From the NCBI GenBank assembly GCA_046538105.1, contig JBKHJO010000001.1, positions 29,707 through 93,706 of the forward strand: a stretch of DNA of 64,000 nucleotides, read 5' to 3'. Positions 4,347 through 61,300 of the stretch are shown in pieces (within the stretch, counting starts at the first letter, position 1; the number at the start of each line of letters is the position of its first letter). This DNA comes from Anaerolineales bacterium (lineage in GTDB: Bacteria > Chloroflexota > Anaerolineae > UBA1429). Made by a program: the position numbers and the translations under genes. The notes under the pieces are model-generated. The model was given only the letters and a program-made list of their open reading frames with translations, made no database searches and was not told where the DNA came from.

Positions 4347-6593
4347 GTGTTGGAGCAATTTGTTCATAATGGTGTTATCGTGCCCAAGCCATCGGATCTT
4401 CCCGGACTCTTTATCGTGGTGCAGGGAGAGGAGATAGAACTCACCCCCAAACAGGAAGAGATGGCTCTGGCCTGGGCGCGGAAGAAGGATACAAAATATG
4501 TGCAAGATGAGGTCTTTGTCAGGAACTTTTTCGAGGATTTCAGCAAGGCTTTGGGCGTTGAACCTCCCTTGACCCCGGAGGAGGTGGATTTTACCGCCTA
4601 TTATGCTTATCTGGAGGCCCAGCAAGAGGCAAAAGAGGAGATGAGCAAGGAGGAGCGTAAGGCGGATCGCGAGGCGCGCAAGGCGGAACGAGAAAGGCTA
4701 AAGGCCAAATATGGCTATGCTATCGTGGATGGCCAGCGCGTTGAACTGGGCACTTATATGGTCGAGCCCAGCAGCATATTTGTGGGACGCGGCAAACATC
4801 CGCTGCGGGGCCGCTGGAAGGAGGGGGCCGAACGCTCCGATATCACCCTCAATCTGAGTCCTGACGCGTCTCTGGACCGGGATGGCTGGGACGAGATCGT
4901 ATGGCAGCCCGATTCCATGTGGGTGGCTCGTTGGAAAGACAAGCTCTCTGGGAAACTCAAGTATGTCTGGCTGGGAGATACGGCGCCGATCAAGCAGGAG
5001 CGAGAAGCGGAAAAGTTCGACAAGGGTCGCCGCCTGGGGAGAAAGCTGGGGGAGGTGAGGGAGCAGATCTCGGGGGATCTGACCTCCGATGATGCCCAAC
5101 GACGCATGGTGGCGACGGCCTGTTATCTGATCGACCATCTATGTCTGCGCGCGGGCGATGAAAAGGATGCCGACGAAGCCGATACGGTGGGGGCCACCAC
5201 GCTGCGTCCGGAGCACGTGACCTTCCACGAGGAAGATAGGATAGTGGAATTCAACTTTTTGGGGAAGGATGCCGTGGAGTGGCATCGAGAACTCGAGGCC
5301 CCCGAGGACGTGTGGGCGAATCTGGTGGAGTTGGTAGAGAGTGCGCAGCCTTCACATTCGCCTGCCGAAGGTGGGGGGGGACACCCCGTGCGGAATCTGC
5401 CCCAGTTGTTCCACGATATCGACAGCCGGGACGTGAATGCTTACTTGTCGGCCATATTGCCGGGATTGACGGCCAAGGTCTTTCGCACCTACCATGCGAC
5501 GGCGGCCGTGCGGAAGCATCTGGCGGCATCGGACGTAAAGCCGGAGGATCCCGAGCATGTGAAATGGAAGGTGGCCAGCGAGGCCAACCTTGAGGCTGCC
5601 CGGTTGTGCAATCACACAAAAGAGTATCAGGGCGATTGGGAGAAGGCGCGTGAACGCTATGAGAGCCGCCGGGAGAGGGCCGAGGAACGCATAGCGCGAT
5701 ATGAGGAGCAGGTGGCGGAGCGCGAGGAAAGACTTGCCGCTTTGGAAAAAGAGGTCGCCGAAGAAGAGGCGGAAGCCGAAACGCCGGAGGCGCAGAAGGA
5801 GATTCGTGAGCGATATGTAGAGCGCCTCGATAAGGCACATGAGCGCATCGAGGCCTCCAGGGAGCGCTTGGAGCGAGCCAGGGTTGCGCTGGATAAAATC
5901 GATACCCAATTCATGATAAGAAAGCAGAAGCGCGACTGGAATACGGGTACCAGTCTCAAGTCCTACATCGATCCTCGCGTTTACTATCGCTGGGGGGAAA
6001 AGGTGGACTATGACGTATTGAACGCATACTATCCGGCGAAACTGCGGCGAAATTTCGCCTGGGTGCGGACGGCGGCCTATGGCGACTATGATGAATTCGA
6101 AGAGGAACATGGCATCACGCTGCGTACATGCATGCACGCTGATCTACGGAGTGTGGCCGAATTTCTTGACGAGGTAGCCGAGAGATATCCCGACGCCGAT
6201 CTACCCCTCGATCCGGAGGAGATAGCCGATAGGTACTTGCCCTCTCTGTACGAGGAATGGCGGGAGGCATTTATCGTCCTGGATAATGATGAGAAGATCA
6301 TCGCCTTTGTCGCGGTGGGACCTGTATGGAACAGCAACGGGGCGGAACTTCTCGATGTTTTTGGTGTGGTTGCCTCCGAATGGGATCGTGCAGATTTCGC
6401 CGGGCTTTTGGAGGCGGAGGTGAGGCGTCGCACCCAATTCTACAAGGTGCAGCATCCCAAGAAGGACTTTGCTCTTTGCCCCTGTGATGAGTCCTGTCTG
6501 GAGCATGCTCGCGCATTGAGGGCGGCTCTGGACATCGTCAAGGCACCCCAAGAGGGAGAGGTTTCAGAGGGTAAAGGGGATAGCGAGGAGTAA
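4347..6593 (+). CDS. Type IB DNA topoisomerase, eukaryote-like large form, with an extra 164-aa C-terminal domain
   Basis: GTG start after GAGGAG. N-terminal core LTPKQEEMALAWARKK..EVFVRNFFEDF (compare human TOP1 LSPKAEEVATFFAKML..EIFRKNFFKDW as recalled). Catalytic residues TTLRPEH, VEFNFLGKD, AKVFRTYHAT and LCNH are present. Coiled-coil linker. Active-site SLKSYIDPRVYYRW. Canonical end ..DYDEF, then an extension to 748 aa. Confidence 0.85.
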   Translation: MLEQFVHNGVIVPKPSDLPGLFIVVQGEEIELTPKQEEMALAWARKKDTKYVQDEVFVRNFFEDFSKALGVEPPLTPEEVDFTAYYAYLEAQQEAKEEMSKEERKADREARKAERERLKAKYGYAIVDGQRVELGTYMVEPSSIFVGRGKHPLRGRWKEGAERSDITLNLSPDASLDRDGWDEIVWQPDSMWVARWKDKLSGKLKYVWLGDTAPIKQEREAEKFDKGRRLGRKLGEVREQISGDLTSDDAQRRMVATACYLIDHLCLRAGDEKDADEADTVGATTLRPEHVTFHEEDRIVEFNFLGKDAVEWHRELEAPEDVWANLVELVESAQPSHSPAEGGGGHPVRNLPQLFHDIDSRDVNAYLSAILPGLTAKVFRTYHATAAVRKHLAASDVKPEDPEHVKWKVASEANLEAARLCNHTKEYQGDWEKARERYESRRERAEERIARYEEQVAEREERLAALEKEVAEEEAEAETPEAQKEIRERYVERLDKAHERIEASRERLERARVALDKIDTQFMIRKQKRDWNTGTSLKSYIDPRVYYRWGEKVDYDVLNAYYPAKLRRNFAWVRTAAYGDYDEFEEEHGITLRTCMHADLRSVAEFLDEVAERYPDADLPLDPEEIADRYLPSLYEEWREAFIVLDNDEKIIAFVAVGPVWNSNGAELLDVFGVVASEWDRADFAGLLEAEVRRRTQFYKVQHPKKDFALCPCDESCLEHARALRAALDIVKAPQEGEVSEGKGDSEE

Positions 6594-14625: not shown

Positions 14626-15630
14626 TTATGAGCTGGTCTCCAGGGAGCGTTGAAGGAGGGGGAGGTGGTGAAGGCCTTGCTCAGCCCCCAGCGCCGTACA
14701 GAGCATGGGGTTCTCTGCCAGGTGACAGGGGATTCCCGTCTCCTCGGTCAGGAAGCGGTCCATGTTGCGCAAGAGGCTTCCCCCGCCTGTCATCACCATT
14801 CCCCGATCGATGATATCGGAGACGAGTTCGGGGGGCGTCTTTTCCAGGACAGCCCTGGCGGAGGCTGCAATATTGGCCAATTCCTCAGTAATGGCCTCGG
14901 TAATCTCTTCCGAGTTGATCTCAATGGTGCGCGGTTTGCCCGCGACCTGATCGCGGCCTCGCACTTCTATGCTCAGTTCCTCTTCCAGAGGGGTGGCACT
15001 GCCCACAGCCACTTTGGCCTTCTCTGCCGTATCGTCGCCGATAATCAGATTGTATTTGCGCCGTACATAACTGGAGATGGCATCGTCCAAGCGGTTTCCC
15101 GCCACGCGCACCGAACTGGAGACCACGATGCCGAACATGGAGATGACGGCGGCCTCGCTGGCTCCGCCCCCGATATTCATGATCATGTTGCCAGAGGGAG
15201 TTCCAACCGGCATGTCGGCGCCCATGGCGGCGGCGAGGGGTTCGGGAATGAGGTGGGCCACGCGCGCTCCGGCCTGTATGGCTGCATCGCGCACGGCGCG
15301 ACTTTCCACGGTGGTCACACCGACAGGAACGCTGAGCATGATCTCGGGACGGCGCTCAAAGCGACTGCAGGCCTTGGAAATAAAGTAACGGAGCATGGCC
15401 TCGGTCACCACGTAATCGGCGATGACGCCATCTCGCATGGGACGCGCCACCTCGATAGTCTCCGGGGTACGTCCCAGCATGGCCCGTGCTTCGTTGCCCA
15501 CGGCCAGGATACGGTTATCGTTACGCGAAATCGCCACTACGGAGGGTTCGTTCAAGACGATGCCCTTGCCGCTCACACAGACGATGACATTGACCGTTCC
15601 AAGATCTATACCTATTTGCTTGCCGAACAT
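14626..15630 (-). CDS. mreB: Rod-shape-determining actin homolog MreB
   Basis: [12 protein letters not shown]...; actin-fold motifs throughout. Confidence 0.9.
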
Positions 15631-34701: not shown

Positions 34702-34948
34702 CTATGCCCTCCCAGGTACTGTATGGAACAATCAACCTGGGATTACAGTATAACACTGACGCCATGCGTCACCAAACATGTGCAGCCCAGGGGTCTTGAA
34801 AAGTCGGCTTGAAATCGGCGGCAGTACTATATGTAGTGGTTGAGGCGATAAGTGTGCCCACATCTAGGGCCTTTTCAAGCAAATGATGCGTTTTTTAACA
34901 CCCTCTGTAACCCCACCTTATGAAAACCGCAATGTGAGATCAGCCGGT

Positions 34949-35731
34949 TCAGTTCCCGACGGCCCTCAGCAGGGCCTCCTCCGCGCTCTCGGTCAGGCCC
35001 AAGGCGTCCAGATCGCGTTGTAGGGATGCCCGCGTCCCGTATCCGCCCAGGTATCCGTTCACGCGCGTGGCGGCCGTGGACCCGACAAAGTCCTCCATAT
35101 CAGGATACATACGCTGAAAGTTGGTCATGATGATTTTTTTCTGTTGTAACATGTACTTTTGATGGTAATCCTCGGCCAGGTAGAATCGGGAAAGGGAGAC
35201 AATCTCTGTGACGATCTCGCCCCCGCGTTGGGCAGCCTCTCGTTCTTTTGTCTCTTGGGCCAGTCTTTTTTGTTTCTCGTTATGGGCAAAGATGACGGAC
35301 ATATATTGTCGTGATGGGGGACGGCGGGTTGGGTTGTGCGCCTTCCAAAAGACGGCTAACAACTCCTCATAGGAGATCTTGGTGGGGTCATAATCGATCT
35401 GCACTGTCTCGCTATGGTTACCAAGGTTGTAGTAGGTGGGATCTTTTTTCTCTCCCCCGGAGTACCCAACCCGCGTGCGCACCACGCCATCGAGAATCCC
35501 GAACCGGGATTCGGCGCCCCAGAATCAGCCCAGAGCAAAGCTCGCCGTCTCTGTTCTCTCTGGGGTTTGGGCATCGATGGGGGGCGTAGGTAGGGGAGAA
35601 GACTTTGAGGTGGAAGGCGGCGTATTGCGCTTTTCCGGCAACGCCAAAAGTGCGCCGATACCGGAAGCCACAAGGGCTACAAGCAGGGCGATGATCAGCA
35701 ATGGTTTTTTTCTGTCACTTTTTTCGCTCAT
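34949..35731 (-). CDS. msrA: Peptide-methionine (S)-S-oxide reductase MsrA, membrane-anchored, with an in-frame TGA at the catalytic Cys position (putative selenocysteine)
   Basis: Track ORFs 35525..35731 and 34949..35485 are in the same frame and separated only by TGA (35525-35527). Read through, the sequence gives ...ASFALG-U-FWGAESRFGILDGVVRTRVGYSGGEKKDPTYYNLGNHSETVQIDYDP..., the MsrA GCFWG.E motif. N-terminal TM/signal LLIIALLVALVASGIGALLA. RBS GGGAGGA precedes the ATG at 35731. Confidence 0.65.
35494..35512 (-). other. SECIS-like hairpin 13 nt downstream of the in-frame UGA
   Basis: GAAUCCCG-GUU-CGGGAUUC (8-bp stem) with a possible outer stem CGCC/GGCG. Position and shape are compatible with a bacterial SECIS. 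Confidence 0.4.
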
Positions 35732-35749
35732 CCTTTGATCCTCCCACTT

Positions 35750-37402
35750 TTACTCTTTGGTAAACCTGGCCGCGATGGGCATCCTGCGTCCTGTGCCAAA
35801 GGCTTTGGTGGTCACCCGTAGGCCCGGCGCTGCCTGCCGGCGTTTGTACTCGTTGCCATCCACCCTTTCGATGACCCACCGCACCGTCTCCTCCTCGAAT
35901 CCCAGATCGAGGATCTCCTCTGTGGAGTAACCCTCCTCGATATAGCACTTGAGTATCTCGTCCAGGATGGGATAGGGGGGTAGGGTGTCCTGATCGACCT
36001 GGTCGGGTTTCAACTCTGCCGAGGGGGGCTTATCGATGGAGGCGCGGGGGATGACATCACCCGCGCGATTCGCGTATTGTGCCAGTTCATACACCATGGT
36101 CTTGGGCACGTCGGATATGACGGCCAGACCCCCGCTCATATCTCCATACAGAGTGCAGTATCCTACCGCCAACTCACTCTTGTTTCCCGTGGAGAGGACC
36201 AGGTATCCGAACTTGTTGGAGAGGGCCATGAGGATGTTTCCCCTGATCCTGGCCTGTATATTCTCCTCTGTGATGTCGACCTCCGTGCCCGCCAGAGGTT
36301 GACTGAGACCATCGAGATAGGCCCGAAAGATGCTCGATATGGAAATCTTACGAAAGTCGATGCCCAAGTTCTTGGCCAATTGTTGGGCGTCTTGCACGCT
36401 TCCCAAGGAAGAGTAGGGGCCGGGCATGGACACCCCCAGGACATTCTCCGCTCCCAGAGCCTGGGTGGCCAGATAGCAGGTCAGGGCCGAATCGATCCCG
36501 CCCGACAAGCCGACGATGGCCCTCGAGAAGCCGCATTTCTGCATATAGTCTCGTAACCCCAGAATCAAGGCTTTATGCACCGCTGCCACGTCGTCCATGG
36601 GAGCGTAGGGGGTGGCAGCCCCCGGTTGCCCCGTCTCTATGATCTCCACATGCTCTCGAAATGGGGGAAGGACGGCGATGGTGCGCCCTTGGGAATCTAG
36701 GGCCAGGCTGTGGCCATCGAATATGAGTTCGTCGTTACCGCCGATTTGATTGACATAAAGGAAGGGAACTTGGTGCTTCTGGACGTGTTTTCGGAGGAGG
36801 GCATGGCGAATTCTCTCCTTCCCGGCGTGGAAGGGGGAAGCCGATATGTTGATGAACAATGTGGCTCCCTTACTGGCCAGGGTTTCCAGAGGATTTTTTC
36901 TGTAGGGCATGCACTTGCCCCAAAAGGCGGGATCCGCCCAGGCATCCTCGCATACGTGGATGCCCAGGATCTCTTTTTTAAAGGGCACAGGCGTTGTCCT
37001 GGGTGCTGGCTCAAAGTAGCGCACCTCGTCAAAGATATCATAACTGGGAAGTAAGGACTTGGGACAGGTAGCCGCAATCTCGCCGCGATGTGCCAGCATG
37101 GCAGCGTTGTATAAGGGTTTGCCAATCTTTAGATTTGTGGGGACGGGCGACCCGAACAGGATACCGGTGCCTGGATAGTCGAGGGACAGTTCCCTGATTT
37201 CCTCTATACCCTGCAGTACACGACCGATGAACCAGTCGCGTTCCAGCAGGTCTCTGGGTGGATAGCCCGTCAAGAACAACTCGGGAAAGATCGCCAGGTC
37301 CGGCACTTTGTGATGACAGGACTGCATCGTCTGTACGATTCGCCGCACGTTGCCGCGTATGTCACCCACTGTGGGGTCAAGTTGGGCCATCAGCACACGC
37401 AT
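35750..37402 (-). CDS. nadE: Glutamine-dependent NAD+ synthetase (CN-hydrolase plus NAD synthase domains)
   Basis: N-terminal nitrilase-like domain; SGGIDS PP-loop. Start MRVLMAQL behind GAGGAG. Confidence 0.9.
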   Translation of the reverse strand: MRVLMAQLDPTVGDIRGNVRRIVQTMQSCHHKVPDLAIFPELFLTGYPPRDLLERDWFIGRVLQGIEEIRELSLDYPGTGILFGSPVPTNLKIGKPLYNAAMLAHRGEIAATCPKSLLPSYDIFDEVRYFEPAPRTTPVPFKKEILGIHVCEDAWADPAFWGKCMPYRKNPLETLASKGATLFINISASPFHAGKERIRHALLRKHVQKHQVPFLYVNQIGGNDELIFDGHSLALDSQGRTIAVLPPFREHVEIIETGQPGAATPYAPMDDVAAVHKALILGLRDYMQKCGFSRAIVGLSGGIDSALTCYLATQALGAENVLGVSMPGPYSSLGSVQDAQQLAKNLGIDFRKISISSIFRAYLDGLSQPLAGTEVDITEENIQARIRGNILMALSNKFGYLVLSTGNKSELAVGYCTLYGDMSGGLAVISDVPKTMVYELAQYANRAGDVIPRASIDKPPSAELKPDQVDQDTLPPYPILDEILKCYIEEGYSTEEILDLGFEEETVRWVIERVDGNEYKRRQAAPGLRVTTKAFGTGRRMPIAARFTKE

Positions 37403-37406
37403 CTGT

Positions 37407-37937
37407 CTATTCGCTCCTCGGTTTGTAGATCTCTTCCAGGACTGTTTGATAGATATTATACGTGCGGTCGCCATAGCAGACGAGGAGGACGCGGTTCGGT
37501 GTGCTGTTCTCCTTGAGAAACTCCAGAACCTCTACAACGGCTATCCTGGCTGCTCGCTCCATGGGGAAGCGATAGGCCCCCGTGCTGATGGCCGGGAAGG
37601 CGATGGTCTCGATATGATATTCCCGGGCCAGGTTCAGGCTGTTACGGTAGCATTGGGCCAGAAGATCGTCCTCGCTCGCGTCTCCTCCCTGCCACACGGG
37701 TCCCACCGTGTGGATGACCCAGTTCGCTTTCAGATCATATCCGCCGGTGATTTTGGCCTGTCCCGTCTCACAGCCGCCGAGGGTGCGACATTCCGCCAGC
37801 AGTTCCGGGCCTGCGGCGCGATGGATAGCCCCATCCACACCGCCGCCGCCGAGGAGTGACCTGTTGGCGGCGTTCACGATGGCGTCCACGGCGAGTGCGG
37901 TGATATCGCCCTTGATGATAGCAAGTCTATCTTTCAT
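37407..37937 (-). CDS. Macro-domain protein (O-acetyl-ADP-ribose deacetylase/YmdB-like)
   Basis: [19 protein letters not shown]...[14 protein letters not shown]...AFPAISTG. Confidence 0.85.
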
Positions 37938-53979: not shown

Positions 53980-55236
53980 TTACGGGGCAGGGGAGGACTT
54001 TTGCTGGAGCAGAGCCTGCTGGGAAACGCCTGTATGTACGATAACCTCGTGAAAAACGCGCGCATCCGGCCACTCTTCGGAAACCACGATGGCGGCTACC
54101 TTCCATATCACTTGCCCCTCTTTTGTAGCGAAGGTGGGACGGCATTGACCGGGGATATCCAGGTTGAAGCGGTAGGTGATGGGCTCGGCCAGATCAAAGT
54201 GGAGATCCTGGCCCAGGTCGACCTCGTCTTCCAGCCAGACATATGTGGTGCCCTCATCGCCAGGGCGTATCCTTCCCTGAAATCGCCCCGACTCGGGATC
54301 CCAGGCGCTCATATAGACGATCTCCCCAGATCCCTCATGGGTACTCTCGATTCTGAGCAAAAGCGCCCGCACCTCGGTGGCCTCAAAGTCTTCAAGAGGA
54401 GAAACGCGGAGAATGCCCTCAATGCTCTTTCCCTCCGCGCAGACCACCCGGGGCAGGGTGAGGGTGAGTTGGCAGTTTTCCATCTCTCGAACTGATTTGT
54501 ACGTTCTCTGGTTGAGAGCAGGGGGAACAGACTCGATTATCAATTCCCGATATGTTCTGGTGTTTGCTGTGTCCGGCATGTCCAGTGTTGCATAAAGACT
54601 CCAGCGAACGGAGCAGGCGTGCCCGTGGTGCGTGGGGAGGGCGTCCTCGGGGATCTCGGCCTGGAAGGTGTAGGTGGGGAATGAAGCGGGGCGAAGAACT
54701 CTTGAGGGCACGCTGCAGAGCCGTTGCACGGCATAGAGATGAGGGGTGCGCACGAAATCGGAGTCGTCGGATACCTCCTCTCCCTCTTTATGGTGGATAT
54801 ATATGCCACGGCACAAAAGATAGACCTCGCCCCCCGATATATTGAGCGTGTTCTGGGAAGAAAATTTCATCTCTCCTTCTATAATCTGGCCGGGAGTATA
54901 GCACTCCTGTTCGTCGGCCAGATCTATGGCGAGGGAGACATCTATCTGGGAGGGGAGTGTGAGTTTTCCGACGAGGGCGCCCCCAATGCCTCCCAGCAAA
55001 AGCCCCAACAGGGCACCGGCCAGGGCGCCGATCATGGCGCCGGGAATCTGGCGGTTAATACCCCCGAACAACATGCCCAACAGGAGGCATGTAGAAGAAG
55101 TAATCCACATGCCGAACCACATGCCCCGGCGTGTGCCGTATCCTAGTGGTGCAAGCAGTCCCATGCCCTGGAATCTTTCCCAGAGTCGTTCGTGCCATTG
55201 CTTAATGCGTTCCATAGTCATGTACCCCGTACCCAT
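53980..55236 (-). CDS. Hypothetical membrane-anchored protein with a glycine-zipper TM and tandem beta-sandwich (arrestin/Spo0M-like) domains
   Basis: GAMIGALAGALLGLLLGGIGGALVG TM segment; two repeated beta-rich halves. The family assignment is tentative. Confidence 0.4.
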   Translation of the reverse strand: MGTGYMTMERIKQWHERLWERFQGMGLLAPLGYGTRRGMWFGMWITSSTCLLLGMLFGGINRQIPGAMIGALAGALLGLLLGGIGGALVGKLTLPSQIDVSLAIDLADEQECYTPGQIIEGEMKFSSQNTLNISGGEVYLLCRGIYIHHKEGEEVSDDSDFVRTPHLYAVQRLCSVPSRVLRPASFPTYTFQAEIPEDALPTHHGHACSVRWSLYATLDMPDTANTRTYRELIIESVPPALNQRTYKSVREMENCQLTLTLPRVVCAEGKSIEGILRVSPLEDFEATEVRALLLRIESTHEGSGEIVYMSAWDPESGRFQGRIRPGDEGTTYVWLEDEVDLGQDLHFDLAEPITYRFNLDIPGQCRPTFATKEGQVIWKVAAIVVSEEWPDARVFHEVIVHTGVSQQALLQQKSSPAP

Positions 55237-55638: not shown

Positions 55639-56715
55639 TCAATAGGGATTCTCTTGCGCCACCTCGCTCAGCACGAGAAAGGCCTTTATCCAGGCGGGAC
55701 GATAGATACCCGCGTCGGTGCCGCTTAGGATATATCCACCGCCCTCGGCAGCCGCGTCGATGCACCGCTGTGCCGCTTTCCTGATGGTCTTCTCGTCTTC
55801 TATCATAAGGAAGGCCATGTCGTCCAGATTGCCCTTGAGGCAGATGCGATCCCCCACCTTTTCCTTGACCTCGGCCAGGGTCACGTCTCCGCGCAGGCCT
55901 GTCTCGATGGGGCTCATGATATCTATGCCTATTTCTGCAATATCGTCCAGTATGGCGCGCAGTTTGCCGTGGGTGTGGTAATTTACCAGGGCGTCGTGGT
56001 CGTGCATGAGGCGGACGATCCCTTTGTCGTAGCGGGTGACAAGTTGGGTAAAGGTGTGGGGATGCACCACGCCGGGGCCGCAGTGTTCGGAGCCGCCCAT
56101 CCAGAAAGACTTGACGCCCTTTTCGCAGCATCGCTCCACAAAATCCTCCACGCGGGGAGCAAAGGCGGCCACGATCTCCTCCACCACGCCCACGTCTTCG
56201 GCCATCTGCATATAAAGATTCTGGGAGCCCAAAACACCAAGCGCGAGCCGGAAAGGCGAGGGCATGGCAAGGGCTACAAGGCCCTCTTTGTCAATTCTCT
56301 CTGTCCACTCATGGTATGCTGTCGGTTCCGGATTCGGCGGGACGTAGGGGATGGAGAGGAGCTTTTCCACGTCCTTTTTCGTCTTTACCAGGTACTCTGT
56401 GGTCCAGGAAGCGTCTCGAGTGATGCGTCGCTCCGCTGTCAGCGTGCCTTTCGGCGTCCGAATCGTCTCCTTGAGTGTATCTTCCTGGCGCTCAATGTGG
56501 CGTATTCGCTTGCGGGCTGCGCCGCAGAATATCTCTATGTCGCTCAGGGCGCCCACGGATAGCGTGATATCGGTATGCTGAAGAAAGGTATGCCACTCCT
56601 CGTCGGACATCTGCTCCACCATGGCGGGAGAAATGTGAGGGGCGACGGGGACTCTGTCCGCCTCCTGATGTTGAATGGCCATGAGCAGTCGCTTCCTGGA
56701 CGTCATCTTGCCCAT
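55639..56715 (-). CDS. Uroporphyrinogen-decarboxylase-family protein (URO-D/MtaA-like putative methyltransferase)
   Basis: Start MGKMTSRKRLLMAIQHQEADRVP behind AGGAGAG; URO-D fold motifs. Confidence 0.65.
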   Translation of the reverse strand: MGKMTSRKRLLMAIQHQEADRVPVAPHISPAMVEQMSDEEWHTFLQHTDITLSVGALSDIEIFCGAARKRIRHIERQEDTLKETIRTPKGTLTAERRITRDASWTTEYLVKTKKDVEKLLSIPYVPPNPEPTAYHEWTERIDKEGLVALAMPSPFRLALGVLGSQNLYMQMAEDVGVVEEIVAAFAPRVEDFVERCCEKGVKSFWMGGSEHCGPGVVHPHTFTQLVTRYDKGIVRLMHDHDALVNYHTHGKLRAILDDIAEIGIDIMSPIETGLRGDVTLAEVKEKVGDRICLKGNLDDMAFLMIEDEKTIRKAAQRCIDAAAEGGGYILSGTDAGIYRPAWIKAFLVLSEVAQENPY

Positions 56716-57014
56716 CGTCTCTCCTTTAGCCGCGCGTTTCCGATCGCCTATCTGATCCCTGTTAGGTAGCCTACATTTGCGATCTGTTCCTGTCAAGTGC
56801 ATTTTCCCTCTACAATAGCGAGGGAACTCCCCAAAGTTGACCACGCTGCCACTTTGTATTAACATTCTTCAGAGCTTGAGACATTTTCCCAGAATTGTTC
56901 CTCGCACAATGTCTGTGTCTTCTTCACAACGTATGTGAACCTTTCTCCCGATGTAGTGGATGGGGTGACCGCTCAAGCCCAAGGTGGATTATTCTTTTTC
57001 GGAAAGGAGATAGT

Positions 57015-60214: not shown

Positions 60215-61300
60215 TCAATACTGGCCGTACTGATCCAGGGTCTCAAAGACTGCTGCCAGGTTCTCCCAGGGGATATCTGGTGTCACGCCGTTCCCCGGCG
60301 AGGCCATCCAGCCGCCTCCGGGCATGAGGCCCTCACATTGCTCCCGAATCATACGCCGTACGTCGTCGGGGGTGCCGTGCTTGAGGTCGCGCTGGAGGCC
60401 GATGGTGCCCTCCATGGCGATGCGATCGCCAAAGCGTCGCTTGATATCATAGATATCCATGCTCTCGGCCTGTACCGTGATGAGGGAGGAGACCCCGATA
60501 TCGATCAGGTCTGGTATGATGGGCACATAGTAGCCGTCGGAGTGATAGCGGAAATGGATGTCAGGGTCCACCTCCTTGATGGCCTCGATGACGGCGGCCA
60601 TACGGGGCTTGAGCCACTCCCTCCACATGTCCGGTCCGAGTATCATGCTTTTCTGGCTGCCCACATCGTCGTTCATGGCGATCATGTCAACCCCCGCCTT
60701 GGCGAAACGGATTGCCTGGGCGATACGGATGTCGGTGATCCTGGTGAGGAGGGCGTCGGCGAATTCCTCATGGACATAAAAATCCTCAAATAATTTGACT
60801 TCCGAACGTAACGTCCAGGCGGTCTGAAAGATCCACCCCAGGTGGGCGCTGACGGGATACCCCGCCTCCTGAAGTTTCCGGATCTCTCCTTCCAGGTGGT
60901 CGTGGCGCCACTCGCCCACATAGTCGGGAAAGGGATAGTTCTCTATCTCTTCCACGGCGGAAAAGTCGCGCATGGGTGAGAGGGGGGCGGACAGGTGGTG
61001 AAGATGAGCCGGGCGCATGGCCACGCCCCATTCGGAATGGTAGGGATTGGACCACTCCAGGCTCCATTCCACATCCAGATCCTGGAAATATCGCCCAAAG
61101 CGCTCCTCCAGGTTAGGCAGGGGGTCGGGGCGCCGAAAGCCGACGCTGGCCAGGTCCCAATCCCAGTACGCCGCCGGATCCTCGTGGCCAGTTTGGGCAC
61201 GGAATTCCTCAAGCACGTCCGGCGTGAGATTGGCAAAGCGGGGCACGCGGTCCGGCTCCTCGTGCTGCAGCGTGGTCAACACGCGCTCGCGATGATTCAT
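60215..61300 (-). CDS. Uroporphyrinogen-decarboxylase-family protein (second URO-D/MtaA-like paralog)
   Basis: MNHRERVLTTLQHEEPDRVP N-terminus parallel to the paralog at 55639..56715. Confidence 0.65.
   Translation of the reverse strand: MNHRERVLTTLQHEEPDRVPRFANLTPDVLEEFRAQTGHEDPAAYWDWDLASVGFRRPDPLPNLEERFGRYFQDLDVEWSLEWSNPYHSEWGVAMRPAHLHHLSAPLSPMRDFSAVEEIENYPFPDYVGEWRHDHLEGEIRKLQEAGYPVSAHLGWIFQTAWTLRSEVKLFEDFYVHEEFADALLTRITDIRIAQAIRFAKAGVDMIAMNDDVGSQKSMILGPDMWREWLKPRMAAVIEAIKEVDPDIHFRYHSDGYYVPIIPDLIDIGVSSLITVQAESMDIYDIKRRFGDRIAMEGTIGLQRDLKHGTPDDVRRMIREQCEGLMPGGGWMASPGNGVTPDIPWENLAAVFETLDQYGQY

Follow-up and report, generated by a model that had tools for sequence, protein, structure and literature searches.

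Within a 64,000 nt stretch of Anaerolineales contig JBKHJO010000001.1, the whole of which is referred to here as the window, the minus strand carries a gene, msrA, that very probably encodes, as one gene, a peptide methionine-S-sulfoxide reductase of the 1-Cys/1-Sec type, with selenocysteine (Sec) at its catalytic position. A first-pass annotation of the window had described two open reading frames (ORFs) that share a frame and are parted only by a TGA, and this stands: from 35731 to 34949 the minus strand forms a single frame of 260 sense codons, whose sole internal stop is the TGA at 35527-35525. The translation of 34946-35731 on this strand reads MSEKSDRKKPLLIIALLVALVASGIGALLALPEKRNTPPSTSKSSPLPTPPIDAQTPERTETASFALG*FWGAESRFGILDGVVRTRVGYSGG..., with the internal TGA in the context TETASFALG-TGA-FWGAESRFGILDGVVRTRVGYSGG. 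In a mechanical ORF list the gene appears as two ORFs of one frame, 35525-35731 with 68 aa and 34949-35485 with 178 aa, the second opening at an internal GTG. The gene and its principal parts are:

34949-35731, minus strand: full coding sequence of msrA, of 260 codons with Sec69 among them, and its stop TGA at 34951-34949 (translation, Pfam, homology)
35740-35745, minus strand: ribosome binding site GGGAGG, 8 nt before the ATG at 35731-35729 (direct reading of the sequence)
35525-35527, minus strand: in-frame UGA, the predicted codon for Sec69, the catalytic residue of GUFWG, where U is selenocysteine (translation, homologue alignment)
35135-35545, minus strand: PMSR catalytic domain, aa 63-199 (Pfam, structural homologue, family alignment)
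34952-35140, minus strand: C-terminal helical domain, aa ~198-260 (near-threshold PF20939 match, gapless alignment to the Clostridium oremlandii enzyme)

Identity of the protein

With cysteine put in for the stop, the protein matches Pfam PF01625 (PMSR) with an E value of 2.1e-43 (148.7 bits against a cutoff of 23.7), and PF20939, 'Selenoprotein methionine sulfoxide reductase A, helical domain', is found at 22.9 bits, slightly under its cutoff of 23.7. The top matches among solved structures are seven entries for the MsrA of C. oremlandii (CoMsrA), with an E value of 1.7e-55. This enzyme is natively a selenoprotein that was crystallised in a Sec16Cys form, and its C-terminal helical domain is essential for activity (PMC4333827); the Sec-MsrA of Clostridium sp. 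OhILAs exceeds its Cys mutant ~20-fold in activity, according to work cited in PMC4333827. Alignment of the read-through protein to this known Sec-MsrA gives 47% identity over 200 aa with 0 gaps and reaches residue 255-257. Sec69, the stop codon in the window, falls on CoMsrA Cys16, and the same codon position aligns with the Cys of GCFWG in full-length homologues, which bears out the first-pass placing of the TGA exactly at the catalytic cysteine. The active-site residues of CoMsrA are Tyr47, Glu55, Gln89, Tyr90, His137 and Tyr140 (PMC4333827), and their equivalents in the window protein, Y100, E108, Q142, Y143, H190 and Y193, are all present; the six positions are invariant or at least 90% conserved in the family alignment.

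It had also been remarked that the downstream domain lacks cysteine, and in fact there is none in the entire 260-aa product; it is because there is no other cysteine, as in CoMsrA, that the enzyme is placed in the 1-Cys/1-Sec class. The window gene agrees with the selenoprotein MsrA family on every criterion that can be read from sequence.

The database proteins closest to the window MsrA (65-99% identity) are all 178-181 aa long and begin just past the TGA, and homologues at a greater distance span the whole length and have both GCFWG and a leader at the N-terminus. The idea that GTG 35485 begins a downstream gene of its own was considered and rejected, as the GUFWG active site would be missing from such a gene. 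Gene callers yield a 68-aa orphan and a 178-aa 'MsrA' without its catalytic residue, whilst others translate the TGA as Trp. The latter is seen in the JGI records for three homologues (P0006, P0007 and P0011; L082:501-1379, JGI 3300076654), which give a catalytic Trp (GWFWG); the DNA of P0011 carries TGA at the catalytic codon, translated as Trp, and so its Trp is an annotation artefact and no real variant.

Conservation of the TGA codon and selection on both sides of it

Eighty related loci were taken from a one-genome-per-species collection, and the homologous codon could be read in 71 of these. It is TGA in 66 species, TGC in three and TGT in two, with the protein conserved on both sides. 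Among the TGA carriers are Anaerolineae, Dehalococcoidia, Desulfobacterota, Nitrospirota, Syntrophomonadaceae, Desulforamulus, Planctomycetota and Coriobacteriia. The first-pass annotation had allowed for a recent nonsense mutation at a locus whose close orthologues carry a Cys codon; this is not what is found, as TGA is present in the two closest genomes, L001 and L002, and a Cys codon in only the five relatives with TGC or TGT.

Ratios of non-synonymous to synonymous substitution (dN/dS) were computed against L001 and L002, which are syntenic orthologues from Anaerolineae metagenome-assembled genomes (MAGs), at dS of 0.7-1.3. Upstream of the TGA the values are 0.31 and 0.18, and downstream 0.17 and 0.14, respectively; dN/dS is low on both sides and therefore both halves have long been translated. 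An independent Logan assembly (SRR21542050) has an identical msrA sequence, TGA included. TGA is also the stop of 19 of the 44 long ORFs in the window, where it is the commonest stop, and it ends msrA itself; a code 4/25 reassignment of TGA was rejected on this ground. Taken together, conservation, selection, the independent assembly and the normal use of TGA as a stop effectively rule out a pseudogene, a sequencing error and an alternative code, as judged from these comparisons.

In one relative, a Desulfomonile tiedjei MAG (L036), a tRNA-SeC (anticodon tca) lies at 15423-15520, 5 kb downstream of the Sec-msrA; the genes flanking it encode a radical SAM protein, a GTPase and an RNase E/G, with no sel genes among them. 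Two Sec-msrA paralogues, each with a TGA and a hairpin, were observed on contig CAVZNY010000007.1 (L011/L015) and in MAG MFD03726.bin.2.26 (L006/L064).

The SECIS hairpin

The selenocysteine insertion sequence (SECIS) of a bacterial selenoprotein gene lies within the coding sequence, and a candidate is present just 3' of the UGA:

35494-35512, minus strand: putative SECIS hairpin, 8-bp stem (35512-35505 paired with 35501-35494) and GUU apical loop (35504-35502)

Its sequence is GAAUCCCG-GUU-CGGGAUUC, with 12 nt from the UGA to the first base of the stem, 20 nt from the UGA to the loop and a folding energy of -10.4 kcal/mol. The consensus for bacterial SECIS elements (bSECIS), as given in PMC13188914, is a loop of 3-9 nt, a stem of 4-16 bp, a distance of 16-37 nt from UGA to loop and a minimum free energy of -7.5 kcal/mol or lower, with G at loop position 1 or 2, usually followed by G or U. 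The window hairpin passes all of these, with its 3-nt GUU loop, 8 bp, 20 nt and -10.4 kcal/mol. Of the 1830 TGA triplets in the window, five (0.3%) have after them a hairpin without mismatches, at least 8 bp long, whose spacing and loop are compatible with a SECIS.

As the hairpin was not recovered by RNAalifold (see below), it was tested explicitly on an alignment of 67 Sec forms, 65 of them distinct. Pairing is found in 78.5% of cells, compared with 22-63% for slid registers, and covariation scores 0.200, a value that none of 500 shuffles reaches (0.103 in the shuffles). Compensatory pairs include the loop-closing pair (G:C in 46, A:U in 10) and two others (C:G in 33, A:U in 8 and U:A in 3; U:A in 40 and G:C in 6), and between the window and its closest orthologues there is a double compensatory change, CCCG...CGGG against CCCA...UGGG. 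Some of the covariation is synonymous: Phe is encoded by UUU only after CAG (10 cases) and by UUC after CGG (47 cases). The hairpin codons CGG (17%) and GGG (22%) are minority codons in this genome.

For a control, six further Cys-form genes encoding the DSRFG peptide were added, giving 11 Cys forms in total. The GUU loop is found in 65 of the 67 Sec forms and in 3 of the 11 Cys forms (Fisher p = 3e-7), and the full hairpin with a G-first loop in 42 and 1, respectively (p = 0.002). The change seen most often in the Cys forms turns CGG into CGC and so abolishes the loop G. The hairpin behaves, on this comparative evidence, as a functional SECIS would, one that decays once selenocysteine has been given up, and the 8-bp SECIS-like hairpin of the first-pass annotation can be retained, since it fits the bSECIS model, covaries in Sec forms and is mostly decayed in Cys forms.

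Two metagenomic Cys forms, L085:301-1110 (GUU loop) and L086:301-1095 (CUU loop), retain the full hairpin, which suggests a conversion from Sec to Cys with later decay of the SECIS beginning at the loop G. A further variant, L083:3001-3804 (GCA_975972275.1, CDLURE010000004.1), has a catalytic Ser, encoded by UCA, one base off UGA, with GSFWE replacing GUFWG. A SECIS-type hairpin with no mispairing and a GUU loop, GACUCCCGGUUCGGGAGUC, is still in place, as if UGA had changed to UCA recently and left the SECIS behind as a fossil; the enzyme is, by its sequence, probably catalytically dead or repurposed.

Alternatives to selenocysteine insertion

A number of observations weigh against a selenoprotein. 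The folding energy of the 53-nt stretch is ordinary for its composition (z = 0.22 against shuffles), and because energy is uninformative in G+C-rich coding sequence the significance of the hairpin rests on its position and conservation. No SECIS family in Rfam matches, either in the whole window at the gathering threshold or in 35300-35750 at a permissive one, the scans returning only a signal recognition particle (SRP) RNA, three tRNAs and two chance snoRNA matches. RNAalifold, run on the 67-sequence alignment, gives another, very weak structure (-2 kcal/mol) in place of the hairpin, and 25 of the 67 Sec forms do not have the hairpin in exactly the register of the window. The covariation comes partly from amino-acid changes and related sequences, and so is not independent for every pair. 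As the first-pass annotation had stated, there are no sel genes in the window: family scans of the ORFs and RNA scans found no selA, selB, selD or tRNA-Sec in the 64 kb. A search of the window for same-frame ORF pairs split by TGA found msrA as the only selenoprotein gene, the other candidate pairs being rejected as shadow frames or adjacent genes. The Sec trait of the source organism is thus something we infer from the gene itself.

The strongest alternative at the level of the codon is that the gene has the architecture of a Sec form, yet this organism does not decode the UGA as Sec, the trait having been lost or selenium being limiting, so that UGA either terminates or is read through at a low level as Cys or Trp. 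The absence of sel genes and of a second selenoprotein gene from the 64-kb window would fit this, as would the fossil hairpins in L085 (Cys) and L083 (Ser), which show that a hairpin can outlive the use of Sec. However, loss of the trait would turn the UGA into a null allele, whereas there is strong selection on both halves of the gene and on the loop G, and lineages that dropped Sec have switched the codon to TGC, TGT or TCA; we consider this explanation improbable. Less probable still is a recent nonsense mutation of a Cys codon to TGA in a dead gene from which only a 68-aa membrane peptide is made. It would account for the splitting of the locus by gene callers into ORFs of 68 and 178 aa, and Sec machinery is again lacking within the window, yet it is contradicted by the TGA in 66 of 71 related species, by purifying selection on both halves at dS of ~1, by the absence of frameshifts and other stops and by a SECIS hairpin that is kept through compensatory and synonymous changes. 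A sequencing or assembly error, with TGC or TGT as the true codon, can be dismissed almost entirely given the identical independent assembly, the TGA in L001, L002 and 64 other species and the presence of the G-first SECIS loop that is typical of Sec forms.

The N-terminal leader and topology of the enzyme

The part of the gene upstream of the UGA encodes two further elements:

35639-35704, minus strand: hydrophobic segment, aa 10-31, PLLIIALLVALVASGIGALLAL, after KSDRKK; predicted signal anchor or uncleaved signal peptide
35567-35638, minus strand: Pro/Ser/Thr-rich linker, aa 32-55, ending in a conserved PPID (family consensus)

The best 17-aa Kyte-Doolittle mean of the hydrophobic segment is 2.74, and the segment PPIDAQTPERTETASFALG fits the family consensus IPPIDAxAPxxTETATFALG, common to full-length relatives. 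The first-pass annotation had argued that this upstream part, with a ribosome binding site and ATG of its own and a transmembrane segment and linker, is no dead remnant; both points hold, as GGGAGG lies 8 nt before ATG 35731 and the region shows homology to the N-terminal parts of full-length relatives and evolves under purifying selection.

A strongly hydrophobic leader is found in the equivalent region of at least 51 of 72 related loci. The leaders are of several types, with ~20 lipoboxes, several classical cleavable signals (such as ...GRLADA/Q, cleaved at the stroke) and a few twin-arginine signals; ~15 of the 72 relatives are apparently leaderless, like CoMsrA. Those of L005, L015 and L080 are twin-arginine-like and lie upstream of the TGA (for example KRRAFVRGLG and RRSFMKLLGC), which suggests that in these organisms a folded selenoprotein may be exported by the twin-arginine translocation (Tat) pathway.

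From its leader the window MsrA would be a signal-anchored, or possibly cleaved, extracytoplasmic enzyme, and we regard it as probable that the catalytic domain lies outside the cytoplasm. Two points count against such a location: the evidence for it is confined to charge and hydrophobicity rules and the leaders of homologues, and no thioredoxin- or CcdA-type reductant gene was found among the scanned ORFs of the window or as a recurrent feature of the loci of the 71 relatives. It is alternatively possible, and in our view rather unlikely, that the catalytic domain faces the cytoplasm, or that the true start lies past the hydrophobic segment, with recycling by glutaredoxin or thioredoxin as in C. 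oremlandii. The characterised homologue is indeed cytoplasmic and reduced by glutaredoxin (PMC4333827), ~15 relatives have short leaderless N-termini, no gene for an extracytoplasmic reductant is nearby and the charge bias across the segment is modest (~+2 before it and ~+1 after). On the other hand, a strong ribosome binding site precedes ATG 35731, the leader region is conserved and under selection, the corresponding region of homologues bears clear-cut signals for export (lipoboxes, cleavable signals of the AxA type and twin-arginine motifs) and exported domains that are tethered typically have a Pro/Ser/Thr linker.

More tentatively, and with somewhat less than even confidence, the extracytoplasmic reading may be extended to a large clade of exported Sec-MsrAs that would take in the window gene, with leaders of the Sec-pathway, Tat or lipoprotein type, among anaerobes of the Chloroflexota, Desulfobacterota, Nitrospirota and other groups. 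These enzymes, with a single Sec and no resolving Cys, would act outside the cytoplasm and depend on an extracytoplasmic reductant, which may be a further exported (seleno)thiol oxidoreductase or else sulfide or thiols from the environment; such a dependence is proposed on the ground that no gene for a thioredoxin-like or CcdA partner lies close by.

Proposed mechanism

Translation would begin at ATG 35731, and the hairpin whose GUU loop lies 20 nt past the UGA at 35527-35525 would serve as a bacterial SECIS. SelB-GTP with Sec-tRNA(Sec) would be recruited to it and Sec inserted in place of termination, to give a protein of 260 residues with Sec69 in the GUFWG active site; these steps are proposed on the strength of the sequence signals and of established SelB-dependent recoding, as described in PMC13188914. 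By analogy with the C. oremlandii enzyme (PMC4333827), the selenolate would attack the sulfoxide of Met-S-O, Met would be released and a selenenic acid formed. An external thiol or selenol reductant would then regenerate the enzyme directly, since the protein has no Cys and so no resolving Cys, and the C-terminal helical domain may keep the active site in shape as it does in CoMsrA. The basic N-terminus, the 22-residue hydrophobic segment and the linker would most likely insert into the membrane with the N-terminus inside, so that the catalytic domain would be tethered to the outside of the cytoplasmic membrane and could there repair oxidised Met of envelope and secreted proteins; a reductant outside the cytoplasm is speculative.

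Comparison with known systems

Selenoprotein MsrA is an established and experimentally characterised family (PMC4333827, PMC13188914 and PMC1794560), of which the window gene is an Anaerolineae member. CoMsrA (Clostridium/Alkaliphilus oremlandii OhILAs; PDB 4LWJ-4LWM, 4U66, 4W8C and 7C13) shares with it the position of Sec, the active-site residues, the helical domain and the absence of other Cys. It differs in that CoMsrA, from the Clostridia, begins 15 residues before Sec, is cytoplasmic and is recycled by (seleno)glutaredoxin, whereas the window protein, from the Chloroflexota, has an extra N-terminus of 55 residues made up of a basic stretch, the hydrophobic segment, the linker and PPID.

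Sec-MsrA has been predicted in Syntrophobacter (PMC1794560), and MsrA with a GUFWG/H motif is listed in a 2026 review (PMC13188914). The Sec-MsrAs of Deltaproteobacteria such as Syntrophobacter fumaroxidans follow the same concept of a catalytic Cys replaced by Sec, with the SECIS right after the UGA (same two sources). So does the Sec-MsrA of Chlamydomonas, although its SECIS is of the eukaryotic 3'-UTR kind, unlike that of the window gene. The SECIS of the E. coli fdhF type and the bSECIS consensus likewise place a hairpin inside the coding sequence directly 3' of the UGA, its small loop starting G-U at a spacing of 16-37 nt; the window hairpin is unrelated in sequence and has a GUU triloop, a perfect 8-bp stem and no bulged U, and its binding of SelB is putative.

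Export or anchoring of MsrA for repair in the envelope, as proposed here, is known from Neisseria PilB, Streptococcus MsrAB2 with CcdA/Etrx and the periplasmic MsrAB of Haemophilus (PMC7034828 and PMC9404787). Those systems are Cys-based and are fused to or lie beside MsrB and thioredoxin-like or CcdA modules, whereas the window MsrA is a stand-alone Sec enzyme with nadE, a macro-domain gene and pyrG as its neighbours and no reductant or MsrB next to it. Six related loci from metagenome assemblies, the Sec form L082 and five Cys forms (L084-L086, L088 and L089), were observed to have msrB (SelR) directly upstream of msrA or fused to it, and L084 also adjoins a 683-aa thioredoxin-domain (DsbH-like) gene.

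The knowledge of Sec decoding and of MsrA chemistry is unchanged by the window gene, and the one feature that has been less described is the leader at the N-terminus, be it a signal, an anchor or a lipoprotein leader, that is common to most relatives. In the accessible portions of the prokaryotic selenoproteome surveys PMC1794560 and PMC13188914 neither N-terminal export signals nor Anaerolineae members are described, and in the searchable literature we found no description of export signals on most relatives of selenoprotein MsrA. Their presence in most relatives of the cytoplasmic CoMsrA points to selenium-dependent Met repair in the envelope of anaerobes, and an exported 1-Sec enzyme raises the question of its reductant. 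The gene's chief value is for annotation: read correctly, it gives back a repair enzyme that is predicted to be functional and suggests that the organism probably uses selenium. It also draws attention to an exported subgroup that has been little studied.

Gene context

Two genes lie upstream of msrA on the same strand:

37407-37937, minus strand: macro-domain protein gene, first of the putative macro-nadE-msrA operon (Pfam Macro, E 1e-48)
35750-37402, minus strand: nadE, glutamine-dependent NAD+ synthetase, 550 aa from the second ATG (CN_hydrolase and NAD_synthase domains; synteny)

The order along the strand is the macro-domain gene (37937-37407), a gap of 4 nt, nadE (37402-35750), a gap of 18 nt, msrA, a gap of 247 nt, pyrG and then tRNA-Glu. 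The spacing and synteny are the grounds on which a macro-nadE-msrA operon with msrA as its last cistron is put forward; nadE, directly upstream, is probably co-transcribed with msrA. A scan for sequence patterns gave no convincing promoter or terminator within the unit. The order is kept in L001, L002 and L081, and the first-pass assignment of msrA to the end of such an operon is upheld by the two closest genomes together with the independent assembly. The PyrG of the window is ~90% identical to that of the syntenic Anaerolineae MAGs, which makes the source of the window a bacterium of the Anaerolineae related to them. The longest ORF for nadE is 574 aa (35750-37474, minus strand) and runs into the end of the macro-domain gene; the start at ATG 37402, which gives 550 aa and the 4-nt gap and agrees with an independent gene call, is the more likely to be correct.

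Clustering of neighbours across the 71 related loci found no recurrent neighbour of msrA. A sensor histidine kinase lies near msrA in 12 of the 71, ~1.7 kb upstream (for example L027:14769-15764), and possibly reflects regulation by envelope stress; a pyridine-nucleotide disulfide oxidoreductase is near msrA in five of the 71.

Elsewhere in the window, a large-type bacterial SRP RNA (Rfam RF01854, 186 bits) is found at 398-662 on the minus strand, adjoining a tRNA-Ser(gga). Other genes observed are those for an Arrestin_N-domain protein (53983-55236, minus strand) and two URO-D-family, methyltransferase-like proteins (55642-56865 and 60218-61300, both minus strand), and a 748-aa ORF without an NCBIfam match (4347-6590, plus strand).

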